A DNA stretch of 64,000 bases. Origin: Candidatus Omnitrophota bacterium. GTDB taxonomy: Bacteria > Omnitrophota > Gorgyraeia > Zapsychrales > Zapsychraceae. The translations under genes and the position numbers were made by a program. The stretch's first letter is position 1. Each line of letters begins with the position of its first letter. A model generated the notes under the pieces. That model did not search any database and was not told the origin of the DNA. It worked only from the letters and a program-made list of their open reading frames with translations. Positions 23,558 through 57,339 of the stretch are shown one piece after another. The DNA lies in contig JBFWOS010000001.1 of assembly GCA_050250375.1 (NCBI GenBank), forward strand, positions 830,361 through 894,360. The letters run 5' to 3'.

Positions 23558-24291
23558 TTGAAGGCGATCATTGAGACAAAATTAAAACAACGGAACCAGA
23601 CATGGGCGTGCTTAAAACCGGCTTGTTGAATTCTCTCCAGGTGCACCTCCAGTGTGTCCGGAACAAGCACGTTTTCAAGGGCCGTGCGTTTCTGGGAGAT
23701 TTCCAATTCACTGTAACCGTTGAGTTTTTTAAAGGAATGATGCAGTTCGGTCTGGACTTTTTGTTCTTCGGGATCCGTAAAATCAATCTTTTCCGAAATG
23801 ACCAGGACTCCTCCGGGTAAAAGTCCGTCGTAAATCCTCCGGATCAAGGATGCCCTGTGATCGGGACTGATAAATTGCAGGGTAAAATTTATAGCCGCAA
23901 ACGAAGCGTTTTCGATCGGGGTTTCAACAATATCCCCGCAGATGATCTCAACCGGGACCGTCAAATTGCTGCGGACAATGTTCTGCCGGCATTTGCCCAC
24001 CATCGCCTCGGAATTGTCGACCGCGATAATCTTGACGTTTTCTTTTTGAATGAACCGGCGCATGGCCAGTGTCCCCGCCCCCAGCGAACAGCCAAGATCA
24101 TAACAAAGGCTGTCGGCTTGGGTATACTGCCCGGCCAGGACACCCACCATGTGGATGATCGACCCGTATCCGGGGACACTTCTTCGGATCATATCATCGA
24201 AGACATTGGCGACCTGTTCATCAAACACAAAGTCCCCGATATAAGCCTGCGGCTGGGCGTACAATGAATCTTTGGATTGCTCCGGCATCAT
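23554..24291 (-). CDS. cmoA: carboxy-S-adenosyl-L-methionine synthase
   Basis: 245 aa with a SAM-binding motif DLGCSLG and the CmoA-like N-terminus. Confidence 0.8.
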   Translation of the reverse strand: MMPEQSKDSLYAQPQAYIGDFVFDEQVANVFDDMIRRSVPGYGSIIHMVGVLAGQYTQADSLCYDLGCSLGAGTLAMRRFIQKENVKIIAVDNSEAMVGKCRQNIVRSNLTVPVEIICGDIVETPIENASFAAINFTLQFISPDHRASLIRRIYDGLLPGGVLVISEKIDFTDPEEQKVQTELHHSFKKLNGYSELEISQKRTALENVLVPDTLEVHLERIQQAGFKHAHVWFRCFNFVSMIAFK

Positions 24292-48776: not shown

Positions 48777-49265
48777 TCATTTATCTCTTTCCTTAATTTG
48801 TTCCGCCTTTGCCAGGACTTTCTGAGTCCAGTTCAAATCATCAGAATTGACAACAATGACATCGAAACCAAATCGGGCTCCATCGGAAATAAATGACTCC
48901 TGATCATCTACATGTAATTTAAAACCAAATTTTGAAGGATATTTGGAAGGCAATGGTATTTTCCGATTGCCAATCACCTCTCTTACATGAATGGGTTGAT
49001 TGACCACCTTCACTAAAGACACACCATAAAACTTAAAAAACCTTTTAACAGAACTTACCGAACGAAAAGAAGTTGTATAAATTGCAATTTGCCATCCCTG
49101 ATCCGTTAACCTCCGCATTAATTCAACTGTTCCCCGCCTTAATGGTTCTTTGTAAAAAAGACGCCAAATAAAGGGTACTCGAGTGGCTTCTTTGGGGACT
49201 TCACTATCTAAGCAGATCAAAGTGTCATCTAAATCAAAAGATATGATCATAGTTTTTTTATTCAA
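48777..49265 (-). CDS. HAD-superfamily hydrolase-like protein
   Basis: N-terminal DxDxT motif (ISFDLDDTL). Lower GC than the flanks. Confidence 0.45.
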   Translation of the reverse strand: MNKKTMIISFDLDDTLICLDSEVPKEATRVPFIWRLFYKEPLRRGTVELMRRLTDQGWQIAIYTTSFRSVSSVKRFFKFYGVSLVKVVNQPIHVREVIGNRKIPLPSKYPSKFGFKLHVDDQESFISDGARFGFDVIVVNSDDLNWTQKVLAKAEQIKERDK

Positions 49266-50427
49266 TTAGCCCTGACCGCTCCGGCGGCCAATAGATTTTA
49301 AAAACTTTACCCTTAACGTTTTCCTCTGGGACAAATCCCCAATAACGGCTGTCATGACTTTTAGCGCTATTGTCCCCTAGGACAAAATAATGTCCCGTCG
49401 GCACAGTGACAGGCCTCTGTCCGTAATATCCGTTAGCATAGTAGTCAATAGATTTTATCCTGGGATCCATAATCAACTCGCCGTTAATATAAATATCGTC
49501 ATTCTTTATCTCAACCTTTTCGCCCTCAAAGGCGATGAGTCGTTTTATAAAATCACGCCTCTTGTCTTCAGGATAAATAAATACGATTAAATCTCCGCGT
49601 TGCGGTGCCGATTCTTTATAAATCCTTTTATCTACCAATATTCTGTCGCCTACTAATAAAGTCGGCGACATTGATCCGGCTGGAATTTTATAGGCTTGCA
49701 CAATATTCTTTCTGACATACATTGTCACCGGAAGGCTAATAACCATCGGCATAATAAATGCAAACACAATCCCACAAATGAGAAACTTTTTGTTGTATCC
49801 AGCGAATCGGCTTTCGAGATCATGAAGTTGATTAAATTTTGTAGAAGAAAAATATGCATCAACAATTATATACAACCTAAACAAAAATAAAGAAACAAGC
49901 AGAGCAATCAAAAAAAGATTGGATTTGGTTTCAGGGAGAAAAATATAACCCGCCAGCGCATTGGAACAAACAACGCGGAGCACAAAAAACAGTATCCCTT
50001 TTTTAGGATACCCTGCATAGATTTGGCCCAACCCATCACAACAAAGACTTAAAATAATCGCCAATAAAGGTTCTTTTGGTTTTTGAACGATGCTTTTCTT
50101 CCAAGGTAAGAATCCCCAGATCTTTTCCCAGACTTGAAATGCATCACCCATCATCTCCAAACAAGCGGAGTCTTTTTCATCCCAGTTCACAAAGGTATAT
50201 TTTTTATTCTTATCGGATATTTTTTCTTCCAACAATCCATATAACTTCATTCCTACCGGTTTGATGGATTTGACTCTTGACACATTAAGGATCTTTACAG
50301 TGAATACTTTCTTGTTATAACCCCGGATGGTAATTTCAAGATACTTTCCTTTTTCACGGACTGAGATAATCGTCCCGTCGTGTATATCTTTCGGGCCGAC
50401 ATAATTTAAGTTTGGATTTTCCTGCAT
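49258..50427 (-). CDS. signal peptidase I catalytic domain fused to an about 115-aa N-terminal soluble domain and four TM helices
   Basis: SPase box B (IPAGSMSPTLLVGD), box D (FIKRLIAFEGE) and box E (VLGDNSAKSHDSRYWGFV). The N-terminal 250 aa, including four TM helices, is not a canonical LepB N-terminus. Confidence 0.65.
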   Translation of the reverse strand: MQENPNLNYVGPKDIHDGTIISVREKGKYLEITIRGYNKKVFTVKILNVSRVKSIKPVGMKLYGLLEEKISDKNKKYTFVNWDEKDSACLEMMGDAFQVWEKIWGFLPWKKSIVQKPKEPLLAIILSLCCDGLGQIYAGYPKKGILFFVLRVVCSNALAGYIFLPETKSNLFLIALLVSLFLFRLYIIVDAYFSSTKFNQLHDLESRFAGYNKKFLICGIVFAFIMPMVISLPVTMYVRKNIVQAYKIPAGSMSPTLLVGDRILVDKRIYKESAPQRGDLIVFIYPEDKRRDFIKRLIAFEGEKVEIKNDDIYINGELIMDPRIKSIDYYANGYYGQRPVTVPTGHYFVLGDNSAKSHDSRYWGFVPEENVKGKVFKIYWPPERSGLIE

Positions 50428-50437
50428 TGTTTTAACC

Positions 50438-51127
50438 TCAAGCCCAACTCAATCCATCAGGCAACGTGTAGTCGCTATACTCTAAATGAACAACTCGACG
50501 TTGAGCCGGTTTGTCCGCTTTGTTGGATGAATGAAGAACATGCGGGCGCATCAGGACCGCATCACCTCTTTCAACGATACAGGAAACGGAATCACGTTTA
50601 ACTTTCAGTTCATCAACTTGATTTTGAGTTAATATACCAAACTGATGTGATCTAGGAATTACCTTTAGACAACCGTTTGATTCATCGGCCGGGTCTAAAT
50701 GGATGCGGATCGTCACCATACGTTCCAGGACATTGATGTCCGGCTGGACATGTTGTACACCATCTTTGATGGTCCATGGCCCCCAGCCTGCTATGTCGGT
50801 TTGCCGGTCGACTGCGATCGTTTTGTCCTGATGCCATACAACACCCCAATTGGCCTCGCTTGTTTTATTAAAATAAATCGCCCTGACCATCTGGGGTTTT
50901 CCATTCAGCACCGTCTCAGCAAGGTCCAGAACTTTTGGGGAACGAGTCAAATGGTACACGGCCTTCACTTTTTTCTCCAAATTCCTTATACCGGAAACAG
51001 CGTCATTTCCTAAACACGATTTGATTTCTCTGCCAAGCAAATCCGCCTCGTCTTGATTCAAAAGATTCTTGAGAACAAAACATCCCTGTTCAACCAGATC
51101 CTTTTTTACGTTATTCTTCACGAGCAT
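50438..51127 (-). CDS. PhyH-family Fe(II)/2-oxoglutarate dioxygenase
   Basis: HxD...H iron triad (VVWHQDK... / RPHVLHSS) and overall PhyH-like length. Confidence 0.6.
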   Translation of the reverse strand: MLVKNNVKKDLVEQGCFVLKNLLNQDEADLLGREIKSCLGNDAVSGIRNLEKKVKAVYHLTRSPKVLDLAETVLNGKPQMVRAIYFNKTSEANWGVVWHQDKTIAVDRQTDIAGWGPWTIKDGVQHVQPDINVLERMVTIRIHLDPADESNGCLKVIPRSHQFGILTQNQVDELKVKRDSVSCIVERGDAVLMRPHVLHSSNKADKPAQRRVVHLEYSDYTLPDGLSWA

Positions 51128-51494
51128 TGGATATCCCTTTACCGTATTTCTTTAGAAACTCTTCTCTTATTTTTTTTGTTTTTTCTACATCTTCAATTTC
51201 TCTCGACATCGGTTCATCGGCCTGGTCTGTTTCGATAATCTTAATGACGATTTCATCCCCACACTTTAATTTTTGATGCTTGATCCAACGCAAATGTTCA
51301 TTCAACTTTTCACGATGTTGGGTTAATCCCCCAACAAAAATATCTATATTCACCTTATCTTTTACATAAACCGCGCCTTTTGATTCTTTGCCCAACGTTC
51401 CGACAGCTGATATTCCTGCATTTAGCCCCCCGAGGTCAGAACCGCCGGCAATAATCGGTTGATCATTATTCACTTGAACTTGAAGTGCAATCAT
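51111..51494 (-). CDS. small protein of unknown family, paralog 1 of a tandem pair
   Basis: Aligns over about 100 aa with the next ORF (I.AG..DL..L...S.....D....VGGL....EHL.WI.H..L...DE..I.I.E.D.AD.P). Confidence 0.5.
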   Translation of the reverse strand: MIALQVQVNNDQPIIAGGSDLGGLNAGISAVGTLGKESKGAVYVKDKVNIDIFVGGLTQHREKLNEHLRWIKHQKLKCGDEIVIKIIETDQADEPMSREIEDVEKTKKIREEFLKKYGKGISNAREE

Positions 51495-51825
51495 CTATTT
51501 GAGGCCTCCTCTTTTTGGGTAAATCCGCTTCATCCATTTCCAGAATTCTTATCTTTAGTTCGTCGTTTATATTTAATTCTCTATGCCCGATCCAATCCAG
51601 ATGTTCTCCCTGGTCACCATTCTGTGGCGCAGACAAACCCCCAACGTGTAGAAAAAAATCATCATTCTTTATTTTAGTAGGATGTATTTTCTTAAGATTG
51701 AAAGAACAGGACAAAATGCTACCTAAAACACACAAATCTTCTCTTCCGGCGATAACCAACCGTTCTCCATTTAATAGAATCTCAAATGCGATCATATCAC
51801 TCCCTAAATTTTTTTGATTCCCCAA
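51466..51825 (-). CDS. small protein of unknown family, paralog 2 of a tandem pair
   Basis: About 30% identical to paralog 1, with a divergent C-terminus ending ...CTSSSSE. Confidence 0.5.
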   Translation of the reverse strand: MGNQKNLGSDMIAFEILLNGERLVIAGREDLCVLGSILSCSFNLKKIHPTKIKNDDFFLHVGGLSAPQNGDQGEHLDWIGHRELNINDELKIRILEMDEADLPKKRRPQIDDCTSSSSE

Positions 51826-51880
51826 AATGCTTGATCAAGAACACTTCCTCACACTTCTATTTCTTGTTTTATTACTAATA

Positions 51881-52129
51881 TTATTTCGTATTACTCTTTT
51901 TTCTCAAATCTTTATTAAAGTAAACAATCGGAAGCAAAATCATCATGGTACCAAGGACAATGACGCTGATAACCGGATAAAGCGGCTGGCCTTTGAAATT
52001 GTCAACCGGTTCGCCGTATCTTCCTTGCATGATACTTGTCACTGCCCAAATAAAAGTCGGGATTGCGGCCAGCATGGTTAATATAAATCCTGCCCTGGAT
52101 AAGTATCTTCTATTCTTCTTAATACTCAT
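51881..52129 (-). CDS. small two-TM membrane protein, hypothetical
   Basis: 82 aa with two hydrophobic helices, at the head of the lower-GC operon. Confidence 0.4.
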   Translation of the reverse strand: MSIKKNRRYLSRAGFILTMLAAIPTFIWAVTSIMQGRYGEPVDNFKGQPLYPVISVIVLGTMMILLPIVYFNKDLRKKSNTK

Positions 52130-52508: not shown

Positions 52509-53879
52509 TCAGCCGGCGGGTTTCTGGGACACAAACAGGGCCTTGCGTTTGTTGAGGGTTGTGTAGGCCCGGACGGCCTGCCGGATGGACAGCATCTTGC
52601 ACTCGATGGAATGCCGGTTCAGGTAATCCCGGCCGTCTTTGGTCACCCGGATCACCCGGTTCTTCCTGGCGACAATCAGGACCTCTGTCTTCTTTTTGCA
52701 GAAACGGCGGATGATCTGGGCGTCGATCATATTCTTCTGGAGGAAGATCTTGAAATCGGTGCCGCCGTTTAGCTCCTTGATCTTCCCGTCGGCCCGGATA
52801 TAGAAGGATTTGTCGATCGTCATGTCATCGATGTGGACCCGGTCCCCGCGCTGAAGGGTGACGAGCGGATATTTCTTGCTTTTGAGGGTCTGCTTCTTTT
52901 TTAAATCCCTTTTCAGAAGAGCGACCGCCCCCAGGATGACGGCATCGTCACCGAGTTCGGACAAGACGATGCGGCAATGGTCGATCCCGGCCAGAAACGG
53001 GTTGGCCCCGGAACGCCGCCTGACGCGCGGAAGGATATACGTCCCGCAGGCCTCCATCATGCCCCCGCCCAGAACGATCAATTCGGGATTCAGGATATGC
53101 CGCATGGAGATGCAGGCGTTGCCGAGCGTCCGGCACAATTCATTGATGACACTGACCGTTAACGGATCTTTTTTGGCCAGCGCCTGCGCGATCACCCGGC
53201 TTTTAATCTGCGCCAGATCATCTCCCTGGATTTTGGTAATCAGGCTTTTTTTTCCGGCCCTGACCGCGTCGCGGATTTCCCGCTCAACCGCCCGGCGGCT
53301 GGTCAGCGCCTCCAGTGTCCCGCGCAGACCCGCGCTCTCTTTGGCGCTGTTCTGGTCGATGATCACATGCCCCAGTTCCCCGGCAATCCCCTGAGCGCCA
53401 TACAGCAGTTTACCGTCAACAATAATTGCCCCGCCGACGCCGGTCCCCGGAAACAGCCCGATGACATTATTCGCGTCCCTGGCCGCCCCCAGCCATTTTT
53501 CCCCGAGAAGCCCCAAATTAACATCATTACCCAAGATGACCCTGACCCCGAACAGCCGTGACAGCCGCTGGGACAACGGAAAATTGGCAAGATTAATATT
53601 GGGCGTACGCAGGATGTCGGTCTTGTTGGGCCGGACAATTCCCGGAACTCCCAGACAGATCCCTTTAAGCTGATTGATGTCTAACTTTTGTTCCTTAAAA
53701 AATCCCTGCAGGTGCGCGCGGACCTGGGCATAAATCCGCTGGGCCGAGGCCTTCTGCAAGGTCGCGCATTTTTTACGGGCCAGGATTTTTCCGGTCCCGT
53801 CAATCAACGCGGCCAGGATCTTGGTCCCGCCGATGTCGACCCCGCAATAAATTTTTTTGTTTGGGTTAACCCCTGTCAT
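52509..53879 (-). CDS. ROK-family sugar kinase or regulator-like protein with an about 130-aa C-terminal extension
   Basis: N-terminal CGVDIGGTKI and a ROK core of about 320 aa, followed by an extra basic domain (KYPLVTLQRGDRVHIDDMTIDKSFYIRADGKIKELNGG...). Confidence 0.65.
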   Translation of the reverse strand: MTGVNPNKKIYCGVDIGGTKILAALIDGTGKILARKKCATLQKASAQRIYAQVRAHLQGFFKEQKLDINQLKGICLGVPGIVRPNKTDILRTPNINLANFPLSQRLSRLFGVRVILGNDVNLGLLGEKWLGAARDANNVIGLFPGTGVGGAIIVDGKLLYGAQGIAGELGHVIIDQNSAKESAGLRGTLEALTSRRAVEREIRDAVRAGKKSLITKIQGDDLAQIKSRVIAQALAKKDPLTVSVINELCRTLGNACISMRHILNPELIVLGGGMMEACGTYILPRVRRRSGANPFLAGIDHCRIVLSELGDDAVILGAVALLKRDLKKKQTLKSKKYPLVTLQRGDRVHIDDMTIDKSFYIRADGKIKELNGGTDFKIFLQKNMIDAQIIRRFCKKKTEVLIVARKNRVIRVTKDGRDYLNRHSIECKMLSIRQAVRAYTTLNKRKALFVSQKPAG

Positions 53880-53889
53880 TCCGTGTGTC

Positions 53890-55245
53890 CTATTTTTTAT
53901 TCCATACTATTTTAATATTTTTCTGGAATACGTCCCGAAATAAATCACCTTTTTTCAAAGCGGTCTCTTTGTCTTGGTCAGCGAAATCATTGGATTCAAT
54001 ATGGATGGTGATGTCCCCGCCTTTCAGCGAACACTCCAGGTCTTTAACGGAATTCAGGTGGCTGCGGTCGAGGCCGTCGGCGACTCTTAAAACCCCCGCC
54101 AGTTTTTTGAGTTCGTCTCTTTTACCGGCCTCCAGATCGGAATAATATTTGTGAGAATTTCTCGGCAACACCCGGCGATGATACCGGGCCACCAGGGCGA
54201 CGATCAGCCGTTCTTCATCCGTCAGCGGCAGGCCGAATGATTTAAGGATGATGTCCCGCGCCGTCTTGTGATGCCGGATCCTGCCCTTGACCCACCCGAT
54301 GTCATGCAAAAGCGACGCCGACTGCAGCAGAAGCCGCTGGCGTTTTCCCAGCCCATGCAGGGCGGTCAGTTCATCAAATAATTTCAAGGCCAGCCGTGTC
54401 ACCTGGTGGGAATGCGGCTGTTCGTAATCACAGGAGCGGGCCAGCTTCAAAACTTCATTGATCACGGCCTGCTCGGGGCTGTTTTTATTTTCTGTATTAT
54501 TAACATCACTCAGGCTGCGGCCCGATTCAATCGACCGGCAGATGTCTTTGGGAAATCCTTCATCTTTCATTTTTTTCAGGACCTTGCGCAGATCATATTT
54601 GATCCTGACATTACGGACCTTGATCCCGGTCTTTGACTTTTCCAGGATGATATAAGACGCGGCCGGATTCCCGTCAAACGGACGGCCGACGCTGCCGGGG
54701 TTGATAAAATGCACACCTCCTGCGTGGCGGGTCATGTAGACATGCGTATGTCCAAAAAGCACGATATCGGCCTTGACGGTCTTGGCCAGTTCAACAAACC
54801 GTTCCCTGGGCGTGTCAACGGTCAACGGCTCATCGATCGACTCGGGACTTCCGTGCACCAGCAGAAATTTCTTTCCCATCGCCTGCGTTTCAAGCATATG
54901 CGGCAGGCCGGACAAATACGATTTTTCCTCTTCCCCGAGATGTTTGTAGGTCCAGGCGAAGGAAAAATATTTGGACGGGTCTTTGATCCGTTTCCATTTC
55001 TTTTTTTTGTCGGGAAACTTGAGAACATTCTGGTCATAGTTCCCGGCGATGCAGCGGGAAACACAACCTTTAAGAAGATGGACAACCTTTTGGGGGTTCG
55101 GACCGTACCCGATAAAATCGCCCAGGTACCAGATGTGTTTGATCTTGTTCCTGCGGACATCTCTCAGCACGGCTTCAAGCGCAGGACCATTCGCGTGGGC
55201 GTCAGCGAGGACAGCAATTGTTTGGGTATCTTCAGTCGGCATCAA
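53890..55245 (-). CDS. calcineurin-like metallophosphoesterase fused to an HD-domain phosphohydrolase
   Basis: N-terminal MPE motifs (DAHAN, GDFIGYGP, GHTH) and a C-terminal HD domain (LLHDIGW...HHK) resembling the Ppx/GppA C-terminal HD region. Confidence 0.65.
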   Translation of the reverse strand: MMPTEDTQTIAVLADAHANGPALEAVLRDVRRNKIKHIWYLGDFIGYGPNPQKVVHLLKGCVSRCIAGNYDQNVLKFPDKKKKWKRIKDPSKYFSFAWTYKHLGEEEKSYLSGLPHMLETQAMGKKFLLVHGSPESIDEPLTVDTPRERFVELAKTVKADIVLFGHTHVYMTRHAGGVHFINPGSVGRPFDGNPAASYIILEKSKTGIKVRNVRIKYDLRKVLKKMKDEGFPKDICRSIESGRSLSDVNNTENKNSPEQAVINEVLKLARSCDYEQPHSHQVTRLALKLFDELTALHGLGKRQRLLLQSASLLHDIGWVKGRIRHHKTARDIILKSFGLPLTDEERLIVALVARYHRRVLPRNSHKYYSDLEAGKRDELKKLAGVLRVADGLDRSHLNSVKDLECSLKGGDITIHIESNDFADQDKETALKKGDLFRDVFQKNIKIVWNKK

Positions 55246-55305: not shown

Positions 55306-57339
55306 TTACGTCCCGTAAAGTTTGATCAGGTGGTTCTGAAAGTTGAACGGCGCTGTCTTGGATTTTAATTTCTGGTACTTCTGGCCCGCGGTTAATTCCC
55401 AGGCCTTCTGATTGTCTTTCCAGCTCAGGTCCATGACTTCCATCAGGTGTGATTTTAATTCGGTCTTGTTGATCTCAAACAAAATCTCGATCCGGCGGTC
55501 AAAATTCCGGGCCATCCAGTCGGCCGACCCGAGGAAGACCCGCGGGTTTTCGTTATTGTTGTAAATAAAAATGCGGGTATGCTCCAGAAACCTGCCGACG
55601 ATGCTGCGGACTTCGATATGTTCACTCAAATCTTTCACTCCGGGGACCAGGCAGCAGATGCCGCGGACAACCAGCCTGATTTTAACGCCGGCTTGTGAGG
55701 CTTCGTATAATTTATCGATGATCGCGTGATCTTCCAGCGAATTGAACTTGGCAAAGATCTTTCCGTTTTTGTATTTATTCTGGAACCGGATCTCCCGGTC
55801 GATCAGGGACAGCGTATATTCCCGCAAACTCTCCGGGGCCGTGACGATCCCTTCCCACTGGGTCGGCTGGGAATAGCCGGTGATCACGTTAAAAAGCTCA
55901 GAGATGTCCCTGGCCACGTCTTCATTGACCGTAAAATACCCCAGGTCCGTATACGTATGGGCCGTCTTTTCATTATAATTCCCCGTCGAAAGATGGACAT
56001 ACCGCCGGATCTTCCCCTCTTCTTCACGGACGATCAGGGTCATCTTGGAGTGGACCTTCAGTCCGGTCAGCCCGTAAATCACGTGACACCCGGCCTCTTC
56101 CAGCTGGCGTGTCCATTTGATATTGTTTTCTTCATCAAACCGCGCCTTGATCTCAACCAGGGTTGTCACCTGCTTGCCGTTTTGCGCCGCTTCCTTGAGG
56201 GCATCAATGATGGCCGATCCCTTATTGGTCCGGTATAACGTCATCTTGATCGCCAGGACATGCGGGTCGCGCGCCGCCGCCTGAATCAGGTCGACCGTCG
56301 GATAAAAGGACTGGTACGGCAGATGAACCAGCATCTCCTGCTCTTTGATCCTTTCAAAAATATCGTCATATGGGACTTTCCGGGGATTGTGGCTGTCGTA
56401 TGTAATCCTGGCGGTGTCCAGCTGGTTGAACAGCTCGAATAAGAACGTCAGGTCGAGGCAGGCCTTGATCCTGGTTACCTCAACCAGGGGAAAATTCAGG
56501 CCGTCACACAACATCTGCTGCAGTTCGGAACTGCAGTCGCCTTCGACCTCCAGATAAACCGGTTTGGCAAAGGTCCGTCTTTTAACCTGTTCATCAATGG
56601 CCTTAAGAAGGTCCGATGTCAGCTCTTCATCTCCCTCGATCTCGCTGTCCCGGATAACCCGGAACAAAGAAAATTCCGTAATATGATACCCTTTAAACAG
56701 TCCGGATAAATATTCCCGGATAATCTCTTCCACCAGGATAAATTGATATTCATCCCGGGGAGAAGGCAACTTCACCAGTCTGGGAATATTTTTGGGAACA
56801 GGAATGATCGCCAGATGGCTCTCCCCTTTTTTATCGATATGGACGGCAAACGACATGGTTTTGGACGGAAGCACCGGAAACGGATGTCCCGGATCAACCG
56901 CCATCGGGGTAATGATCGGAAACAGGGTCGTCTCAAAATAATTTTTGATAAATTTCTTCTGGTCATTTTTTAACTCGTCCAGGCTTTTGATAAAAATCCT
57001 GTTCTTGGCCAGCTCTTTGAGGATCTTGTTATTATAAATTTCATACAGGGCGTCGATCAGCTGATGGGATTTGTCAAGGATCAGGCCCATCAGTTCGGTG
57101 GGCGTATAACCGTAACGCGGGTCATTGTTGATCTGGGACTCGATCATATTCTTCAGGCTGGCCACGCGGACCATAAAGAATTCGTCCATGTTGCTGACGA
57201 AGATGGCCAGGAACTTGGCCCTTTCCAGGATCGGGTTTGATAAATCGTTGGCTTCGTTCAGGACCCGTTCGTTAAACAGCAGCCAGCTGTAGTCTCGCGG
57301 GATATATTTTTCTTTATCACTGATGGTTATCTTTTTCAT
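55306..57339 (-). CDS. ppk: polyphosphate kinase 1
   Basis: 677 aa; N-terminus YIPRDYSWLLFNERVLNEA...FLAIFVSNMDEFFMVRV plus two PLD-like C-terminal domains. Confidence 0.9.
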   Translation of the reverse strand: MKKITISDKEKYIPRDYSWLLFNERVLNEANDLSNPILERAKFLAIFVSNMDEFFMVRVASLKNMIESQINNDPRYGYTPTELMGLILDKSHQLIDALYEIYNNKILKELAKNRIFIKSLDELKNDQKKFIKNYFETTLFPIITPMAVDPGHPFPVLPSKTMSFAVHIDKKGESHLAIIPVPKNIPRLVKLPSPRDEYQFILVEEIIREYLSGLFKGYHITEFSLFRVIRDSEIEGDEELTSDLLKAIDEQVKRRTFAKPVYLEVEGDCSSELQQMLCDGLNFPLVEVTRIKACLDLTFLFELFNQLDTARITYDSHNPRKVPYDDIFERIKEQEMLVHLPYQSFYPTVDLIQAAARDPHVLAIKMTLYRTNKGSAIIDALKEAAQNGKQVTTLVEIKARFDEENNIKWTRQLEEAGCHVIYGLTGLKVHSKMTLIVREEEGKIRRYVHLSTGNYNEKTAHTYTDLGYFTVNEDVARDISELFNVITGYSQPTQWEGIVTAPESLREYTLSLIDREIRFQNKYKNGKIFAKFNSLEDHAIIDKLYEASQAGVKIRLVVRGICCLVPGVKDLSEHIEVRSIVGRFLEHTRIFIYNNNENPRVFLGSADWMARNFDRRIEILFEINKTELKSHLMEVMDLSWKDNQKAWELTAGQKYQKLKSKTAPFNFQNHLIKLYGT

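Follow-up and report, generated by a model that had tools for sequence, protein, structure and literature searches.

What kind of enzyme is a signal peptidase that carries a soluble domain and a block of hydrophobic segments ahead of its membrane anchor, and does such a protein serve its cell as the general signal peptidase or as an additional one? The question is raised by a gene on the minus strand of a 64,000-nucleotide (nt) stretch of DNA from Candidatus Omnitrophota bacterium (GenBank assembly GCA_050250375.1, contig JBFWOS010000001.1, positions 830,361 to 894,360). This whole stretch is referred to as the window. A first-pass annotation had described the gene product as a signal peptidase I (SPase I) with an atypical long N-terminal extension, and had proposed a dedicated processing peptidase rather than the housekeeping LepB. 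The analysis favours, with somewhat more confidence than doubt, a membrane-bound and catalytically competent SPase I of the S26A type. It would belong to a clade of long forms specific to the phylum and would act as an accessory enzyme beside a short housekeeping LepB. The protein is an unusual architectural variant of a familiar enzyme family and not a new kind of system.

Catalytic domain and membrane module

The open reading frame (ORF) of 389 amino acids (aa) lies exactly where the first-pass annotation had placed it. Independent gene calls, NCBI-derived and Logan, contain the identical product (P0377) on two contigs. Domain searches, which had been recommended as a check, confirm the S26 domain. 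The Pfam model Peptidase_S26 (PF10502) matches residues 224–380 with E = 2.4e-45 and 154.9 bits (cut-off 22.9), covering model positions 4–168 of 168, and the NCBIfam model TIGR02227 (sigpep_I_bact), which has a cut-off of 47, gives 156.9 bits. The catalytic domain resembles the solved SPase I structures 1B12, 1T7D, 4NV4 and 4WVG (E down to 5e-25).

The catalytic boxes listed in the first-pass annotation are all present: PAGSMSPT (box B), FIKRLIAFE (box D) and GDNSAKSHDSRYWGFV (box E). In an alignment, Ser252 and Lys295 line up with the Ser and Lys of 120 short-form LepB proteins. The GDN-S-D-R residues of box E are all canonical and agree with the pattern G-D-N-x-x-x-S-x-D-S-R. The gene is a genuine S26/type I signal peptidase with complete catalytic boxes. 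Its product is apparently catalytically competent, a peptidase activity being predicted from these residues.

The familiar S26A enzymes, such as Escherichia coli LepB (1B12/1T7D), Staphylococcus aureus SpsB (4WVG) and the structures 4NV4/4ME8, share with the window protein the fold, boxes B to E, the Ser/Lys dyad and an anchor helix before box B. The catalytic domain of the window protein is of the compact Gram-positive type, at approximately 150 aa. Against the model for E. coli-type LepB (NF008114, PRK10861), which has a cut-off of 277 bits, the window protein scores 101.9 bits, split over two stretches, and so lacks the large domain II insertion. At its N-terminus, a soluble domain and a three-segment membrane module add approximately 215 residues in place of the usual anchor of one or two transmembrane (TM) helices.

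More specialised members of the family were considered and rejected. The TraF conjugative peptidase model (TIGR02771) scores 54.7 against a cut-off of 100.25, and the SodX protease model for maturation of nickel superoxide dismutase (TIGR02754) scores 51.1 against 63.25. Scores for NF010459 and NF010412 fall far under their cut-offs. A pseudo-signal-peptidase resembling SipA was set aside, as the window protein has both the catalytic Ser and the catalytic Lys.

Hydropathy reveals four hydrophobic segments, at residues 120–137 (h1), 145–164, 171–193 and 214–237. The last is the anchor helix, which aligns with the single TM helix of the short forms. The membrane module spans residues ~116–213, with the motif KPKEPLL...GLGQIYAG...KKG, and is distantly similar to the families DUF5683 (PF18935), DUF6677 (PF20382) and TM2 (PF05154). 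These have in common the signature G-x-G-Q/H-x-Y...K/R-G followed by TM helices. In 87/87 sequences, residues G132, G134 and Y137 do not vary; Q135 and G144 are also present in the window protein, which has Asp131 where Pro or Thr is usual in the family. The window protein itself stays under all of the family thresholds. TM2 reaches 15.1 bits (cut-off 27.9), and no match to DUF5683 or DUF6677 was obtained even at E ≤ 10. Relatives with a double module (P0083, P0084 and P0093) exceed the DUF5683/DUF6677 gathering scores. The three families have no known function, and none of the papers listed in a literature search mentions DUF5683 or DUF6677.

The first-pass annotation had proposed a soluble domain followed by four TM helices. 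The soluble domain and the four hydrophobic segments are upheld; four membrane-spanning helices are not, on the evidence of loop charges in 86 relatives with a single module. On average, loop 1 has a net charge of +2.5, the six-residue loop 2 one of +0.3, and loop 3, the basic loop that precedes the anchor helix, one of +3.9. By the charge rule, the last of these agrees with an in-to-out orientation of the anchor. Positive charge flanks h1 on both sides in single modules, and also in most second modules of the double-module relatives. This suggests that h1 is probably not a full membrane pass and that three spanning helices are likelier than four. If the N-terminus were cytoplasmic and all four helices spanned the membrane, the catalytic domain would lie in the cytoplasm. 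A relative fused to tetratricopeptide repeats (TPR), P0113, has a 300-aa N-terminus with no signal peptide and a single module behind it. Structure prediction of the full protein from its single sequence by AlphaFold2 (AF2) was unusable, with a predicted local distance difference test score (pLDDT) of 40.7.

The simplest arrangement consistent with these data is a cytoplasmic N-terminus, h1 in the cytoplasmic leaflet, a hairpin running in-out-in, an anchor running in-out and a periplasmic S26 domain. In the proposed mechanism, translation would begin at the first ATG, and residues 7–102 would form a small all-beta fold that remains on the cytoplasmic side. From there, a basic linker would lead into the membrane module, where the PLL...GLGQIY element would dip into the cytoplasmic leaflet before a two-helix hairpin. 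The third spanning helix would be the normal LepB anchor and would take the chain out, leaving the S26 domain at the inner membrane's periplasmic face, where Ser252 and Lys295 would act as the dyad that cuts signal peptides off preproteins exported through Sec or Tat. The N-terminal domain and the module may contribute to localisation, partner binding or regulation rather than to catalysis; the N-terminal domain could alternatively be a near-neutral passenger.

Long and short signal peptidases of the Omnitrophota

The homologs described here come from lists of the best 120 matches, which are not a census. Approximately 99 of the 120 best homologs carry the membrane module. These long forms are of Omnitrophota type, approximately 280 aa in length and 45–55% identical to the window protein over residues ~115–389. 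They begin a few residues before the stretch K-P-K-E-P-L-L-A...P-G-L-G-Q-I-Y-A-G...K/R-G, with at most 15 residues ahead of the module in 87/98 of them. The long forms (P0002–P0088 and others) have the same module (KPKEPLL...PGLGQIYAG...KG), TM hairpin, DAY..A..FN loop, anchor and S26 domain as the window protein. In a neighbour-joining (NJ) tree the window protein nests in this clade, together with P0002, P0003 and P0004. Public records name the long forms just “signal peptidase I”. None of them has the soluble N-terminal domain of the window protein, and other additions occur: the TPR N-terminus of P0113, extra TM helices in P0079, a Cys-rich N-terminus in P0119 and a C-terminal MORN region in P0072.

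The word “atypical” consequently applies to only part of the extension. It holds for the soluble domain, which is unique, and for the departure from the one or two TM helices of model LepB anchors. It does not hold for the membrane block, which on these alignments is a common, undescribed LepB variant of the phylum. The first-pass annotation had named a lineage-wide LepB variant, together with a single SPase I in the genome, as the outcome that would contradict it; the first half of this applies to the membrane part, because the module is common in the lineage.

The catalytic dyad is variable among the long forms. It is Ser/Lys in 40 of the 99 and Thr/Lys in 24, and in 35 the nucleophile or the Lys has been lost, the substitutes being Ala, Gly or Asn, and Met, Gln, Glu, Tyr or His. 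Thus, 59/99 are non-canonical at the dyad, in contrast to the window protein, and box E is kept in 91/99. On an NJ tree built with the two catalytic columns removed, the dyad must have changed between the canonical and a non-canonical state at least 17 times, compared with approximately 41 times when the labels are shuffled. The nearest relatives of the window protein are mixed: P0002 and P0003 are canonical, while P0004 and P0023/24 have Ala or Ala/Tyr. The long-form clade looks like a large, undescribed group of likely pseudo-signal-peptidases.

The short LepB of the Omnitrophota measures 190–245 aa and has one anchor helix and no module. Ser and Lys are present in 120/120 short forms, and the mean pairwise identity is 0.71, as against 0.535 for the long forms. 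The catalytic domain of the window protein has a mean identity of 0.60 to the short forms and 0.575 to the long forms. The short LepB (P0090-like) thus belongs to the same phylum and is approximately 60% identical in its catalytic domain, but it differs in its single anchor, the lack of a module and its linkage to lepA, and is likely the housekeeping enzyme. A short form directly follows lepA in three Omnitrophota loci (L002, L004 and L005). In GCA_040960315.1 (locus L083, 8001–9475), lepA, the long form P0043 (285 aa) and a short form (195 aa) stand in tandem, the lepA stop overlapping the long-form start by 4 nt. Other long forms occur in unrelated gene contexts.

These differences are the signature of a conserved housekeeping enzyme in the short form and a fast-evolving accessory paralog, often a pseudo-enzyme, in the long form. 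That the long form is an accessory paralog is suggested by the short forms, which keep the dyad and, where their context was seen, follow lepA, and by the occurrence of both in one genome. The window contains no lepA, only a weak EF-like match at 23920–24291, and the gene upstream of the peptidase is PhyH-like, so that the position in a housekeeping lepA-lepB operon was not found here. The first-pass view that this is not the housekeeping LepB has indirect support from these points and from the dyad, which long forms often lose and short forms never do. In its own genome the window enzyme is probably accessory.

A separate observation concerns the short forms of 243 aa (P0090, P0094, P0095 and P0109). 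These have a cytosolic N-terminus of approximately 60 aa that weakly resembles sigma-70 region 1.1 (PF03979, E = 0.002), an odd appendage for a signal peptidase.

Several points weigh against the reading of the window protein as an active accessory enzyme. Its topology is a prediction from the positive-inside rule and comparative logic. The fusion of the N-terminal domain, described below, is found in one species-level lineage only, with no evidence of selection maintaining it. Among the matches listed, the analysis located no second SPase I of the source genome, and ten NCBI-derived short forms whose accessions were looked up include none of the MGE series to which the records of the window protein belong. 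Furthermore, some of the closest relatives (P0004, P0023/24) have Ala in place of the nucleophile, and for this reason catalysis may not be the selected trait of this clade.

The third of these points would be expected if the long form were the sole housekeeping SPase I of its cell, having replaced the lepA-linked short LepB and handling all exported preproteins. The intact dyad and box E are in keeping with this, as is the result of a tblastn search, which found no second S26 gene within the 64-kb window and agrees with the first-pass statement that no other lepB is visible there. The lepA-adjacent position of P0043 likewise suggests that a long form can occupy the housekeeping site. However, where the long form adjoins lepA the short form comes next, and the short form, with its 120/120 dyads, shows extreme conservation throughout the phylum. 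No lepA adjoins the window gene, which lies in a low-GC, accessory-looking cluster, and the repeated loss of catalytic residues in the long forms implies that the genomes concerned contain another active SPase I. A sole housekeeping role for the window enzyme is accordingly considered unlikely.

Pseudo-signal-peptidases have so far come mainly from Gram-positive pilus islands, with SipA as the example. A phylum-wide group of them bearing a membrane module would be a new setting for the role of an S26 fold that does not cut. The main interest of the locus lies in this clade-wide loss of the dyad rather than in the window gene itself. The Omnitrophota are ultra-small, often host-dependent bacteria, and the long-form clade would bear on their protein export.

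It has to be asked whether the window protein is itself mainly a non-catalytic factor of this kind, one that binds signal peptides or preproteins and has the module and the N-terminal domain as its functional core. The Ala and Ala/Tyr variants of the nearest clade and the retention of box E in most long forms, although 59/99 are non-canonical at the dyad, are consistent with this proposal. The streptococcal pilus-island protein SipA/LepA (4N31, 4K8W; PMC4049620) offers a precedent, as it is an S26-fold paralog that stands beside a housekeeping SPase I, and 4N31 is among the PDB matches of the window protein. SipA is essential, although its catalytic Ser and Lys have given way to Asp and Gly (PMC4049620). 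The similarity is nonetheless weak (E~1e-7), SipA has no membrane module, and the window protein has Ser and Lys where SipA does not. Every catalytic-site residue that was examined is retained in the window protein, a state that should not last long if the protein could do without catalysis, and partner genes of the pilin or sortase kind are not found nearby. A non-catalytic role for this particular protein is considered quite unlikely.

Sets of SPase I paralogs are familiar from Bacillus subtilis (SipS/T/U/V/W and the plasmid-borne SipP) and Streptomyces (SipW-Z), and have overlapping or specialised substrates. Those paralogs keep a simple anchor of one TM helix and are not known to include one with a DUF5683-like module or with a cytosolic beta domain fused to it. 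A more far-reaching and highly speculative proposal, to which very little probability is given, is that the long forms constitute a distinct class. The S26 fold would bind signal peptides in association with the DUF5683-like module, catalysis would be optional (approximately 60% are non-canonical), and the N-terminus would repeatedly have gained cytosolic domains, whether TPR, Zn-ribbon-like or beta. Such proteins might serve particular Omnitrophota exports as receptors, chaperones or gatekeepers. If so, the window protein would be a rare case of a cytosolic binding domain joined to a still-active peptidase, which might allow, for example, regulated or substrate-selective processing. The active accessory enzyme remains the preferred reading. 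The physical linkage to the export machinery would offer a first functional handle for the DUF5683-like module and for the new beta domain.

The N-terminal domain and the start codon

The second feature of the extension is the soluble domain at residues 7–102, hereafter the N-domain. A phmmer search against 1.84 billion representatives returned 175 relatives at E ≤ 1e-3, of which 29 reach E ≤ 1e-10. Almost all of them stand alone, as proteins of approximately 100 aa that match from end to end, and no relative joined to a peptidase is listed among them. A profile search added 117 relatives from Paenibacillus, Acidobacteria, Planctomycetes and many metagenomes, all labelled “hypothetical protein” and none with a Pfam domain. 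The motifs of the family are Y-x-G...H-D, G-M-x-L-Y and F-x-N-W-D-E. H16-D17 and F79 are invariant, Y9, G59-M60, L62-Y63 and others are near-invariant, and the window protein retains these residues. The hidden Markov model (HMM) of the family matches the window protein with 110 bits (E = 3e-32) over model positions 1–102.

Structure prediction of the N-terminal region, another recommended check, returned a confident fold. With an alignment of 109 sequences, AF2 gave a nine-strand all-beta domain at pLDDT 89.3 and a predicted template modelling score of 0.79; the pLDDT falls after residue 102. No match to the N-domain was found in Pfam, NCBIfam, PHROGs, PADLOC or, with a profile, in PDB sequences, and Foldseek found no solved structure that resembles the fold. 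The only neighbours are weak ones, the uncharacterised phage DUF7448 proteins. Other members of the family are joined on either side to HEAT repeats, small soluble domains or TM segments, and the genes around the relatives are small and unknown. An immunity-protein function was suggested by these small unknown genes, the HEAT repeats and DMP19 nearby, and was rejected as no known Imm family was matched. A further observation is that query residues ~42–86 match four to seven repeated stretches in giant proteins of 1,600–2,750 aa (P0130, P0158, P0171, P0225 and P0254), which are either true sub-motif repeats or compositional matches.

The N-domain is real, intact and not decaying. Judging from the relatives that were found, its fusion to a peptidase is confined to this lineage; the other long forms have no N-domain gene upstream, and a 105-aa ORF in locus L090 is unrelated. 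As an event specific to the lineage, the fusion may be nearly neutral.

The reality of the domain bears on the choice of start codon. The NCBI model (P0001; MGE0268733.1, MGE3980621.1) is 100% identical over its 341 aa and begins at the GTG of codon 49 (GTG49). Shine–Dalgarno-like cores precede 18 of the 38 genes in the window (background 0.20), mostly at a spacing of 5–8 nt. One such core precedes the ATG of codon 1 (ATG1), and none was found upstream of GTG49. The cores ahead of M60 and M92/93 (GGAG at ATG92/93) are badly spaced, at 0–3 nt. A start at GTG49 would delete strands 1–4 and the invariant H16-D17. The codon-usage log-odds of residues 1–92 is +0.24 in frame and between -0.2 and -0.7 in the other five frames, the mean for the gene being 0.315 with a standard deviation of 0.109. 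The first-pass claim of a coding soluble N-terminal part is therefore confirmed by gene-like codon usage and by the full-length HMM match. On these grounds, and with the independent gene calls of the 389-aa product, ATG1 is the better start, and the NCBI annotation (341 aa, “signal peptidase I”) probably uses a wrong one that truncates the N-domain. A wrong start in the public record hides the fused domain of an uncharacterised, widespread family of small proteins.

The remaining alternative, that the N-domain is the remnant of an upstream gene whose stop codon was lost and that the functional peptidase is made from GTG49 or ATG92/93, draws on several observations: the choice of GTG49 by the NCBI pipeline, the uniqueness of the fusion, the normally standalone state of a family whose members end near residue ~100–110, and a product of approximately 297 aa from ATG92/93, near the clade norm of ~280 aa. 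It is very unlikely, as GTG49 has no Shine–Dalgarno sequence and would halve a folded domain, GGAG stands only 0–3 nt before ATG92/93, the family-invariant residues, full-length HMM match and gene-like codon usage indicate a domain that is not decaying, and ATG1 has a well-spaced Shine–Dalgarno sequence right after the upstream stop. Both products could coexist. None of the codons between 93 and 122 is ATG, GTG or TTG, and because of this the membrane and peptidase parts could not be made as a normal clade protein of ~280 aa.

The gene cluster and its surroundings

Six minus-strand genes are tightly packed at 48777–52129, with gaps of +55, -29, -17, +10 and -8 nt, and the peptidase gene is the fifth of them. 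In order, they encode an 82-aa membrane protein, two paralogous unknown proteins, a PhyH-like dioxygenase, the peptidase itself and a small HAD-like hydrolase. GC z-scores range from -1.6 to -2.05 except for PhyH, and GC at third codon positions is low. The low-GC operon of the first-pass annotation is thereby recognised, and the cluster resembles an accessory island. The positions of the genes and of the features of the peptidase are collected in Table 1.

Table 1. Positions of the peptidase gene, its parts and its neighbours in the window
Feature	Position	Strand	Description
Whole peptidase gene	49258..50427	-	389 aa; N-domain, membrane module, anchor helix and S26 catalytic domain; from ORF list and Pfam/NCBIfam matches
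Proposed true start ATG (Met1)	50425..50427	-	Best Shine–Dalgarno context; coding signal begins here; family homology from residue ~6
Shine–Dalgarno-like GAGG	50436..50439	-	8 nt upstream of ATG1; overlaps TGA stop of upstream PhyH gene
N-domain	50122..50409	-	Residues 7–102; compact nine-strand all-beta fold, predicted cytosolic; unnamed family
GTG codon 49	50281..50283	-	Start of NCBI 341-aa model; probably wrong
Linker IWGFLPWKKSIVQKPKE	50071..50121	-	Residues 103–119; basic (+4/-1); ends in family-conserved KPKE
h1 PLLAIILSLCCDGLGQIY	50017..50070	-	Residues 120–137; module signature; predicted re-entrant or interfacial, not spanning
TM hairpin	49849..49995	-	TM-a residues 145–164, loop PETKSN, TM-b residues 171–193; hydropathy
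Anchor helix TM-c	49717..49788	-	Residues 214–237; directly before box B; counterpart of single LepB anchor; hydropathy
Peptidase S26 catalytic domain	49288..49758	-	Residues 224–380; Pfam match
Ser252 codon TCA	49672..49674	-	Nucleophile; box B PAGSMSPT
Lys295 codon AAA	49543..49545	-	General base; box D FIKRLIAFE
Box E GDNSAKSHDSRYWGFV	49330..49377	-	Residues 351–366
Small HAD-like hydrolase	48777..49265	-	162 aa; downstream neighbour; overlaps peptidase gene by 8 nt; weak matches only
PhyH-family Fe(II)/2-oxoglutarate dioxygenase-like	50438..51127	-	229 aa; upstream neighbour, 10-nt gap; PF05721, E = 2e-14
Two small paralogous ORFs	51111-51494, 51466-51825	-	127 and 119 aa; adjacent, overlapping; 35% identity, E~1e-15
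Two-TM protein	51881-52129	-	82 aa; cluster head; signal-peptide-like N-terminus MSIKKNRRYLSRAGFILTMLAAIPTFIWA/VT

From its place in this operon, the first-pass annotation had deduced a dedicated processing peptidase. This finds no direct support. None of the neighbours in the six-gene cluster recurs beside long forms in eight other loci, and there is no obvious substrate gene among the neighbours. The 82-aa protein is a conceivable SPase I substrate, as judged by eye. The 127-aa and 119-aa paralogs have no match in Pfam, NCBIfam, PHROGs or PADLOC. An origin of the cluster in a defence system or a phage was also considered and rejected, there being no PADLOC match and only a weak PHROG match for the HAD-like gene.

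Immediately upstream of the low-GC cluster, three further minus-strand genes were noted. The first (52509-53879) encodes a ROK-family kinase of 456 aa that has a long extension at its C-terminus, the second (53890-55245) a metallophosphatase/HD protein that contains a Ppx-GppA domain III, and the third (55306-57339) polyphosphate kinase 1. Gene orientation is extremely uniform over the 64 kb, as all 31 of the 31 non-overlapping ORFs of at least 250 aa that served as the training set for codon usage are on the minus strand.

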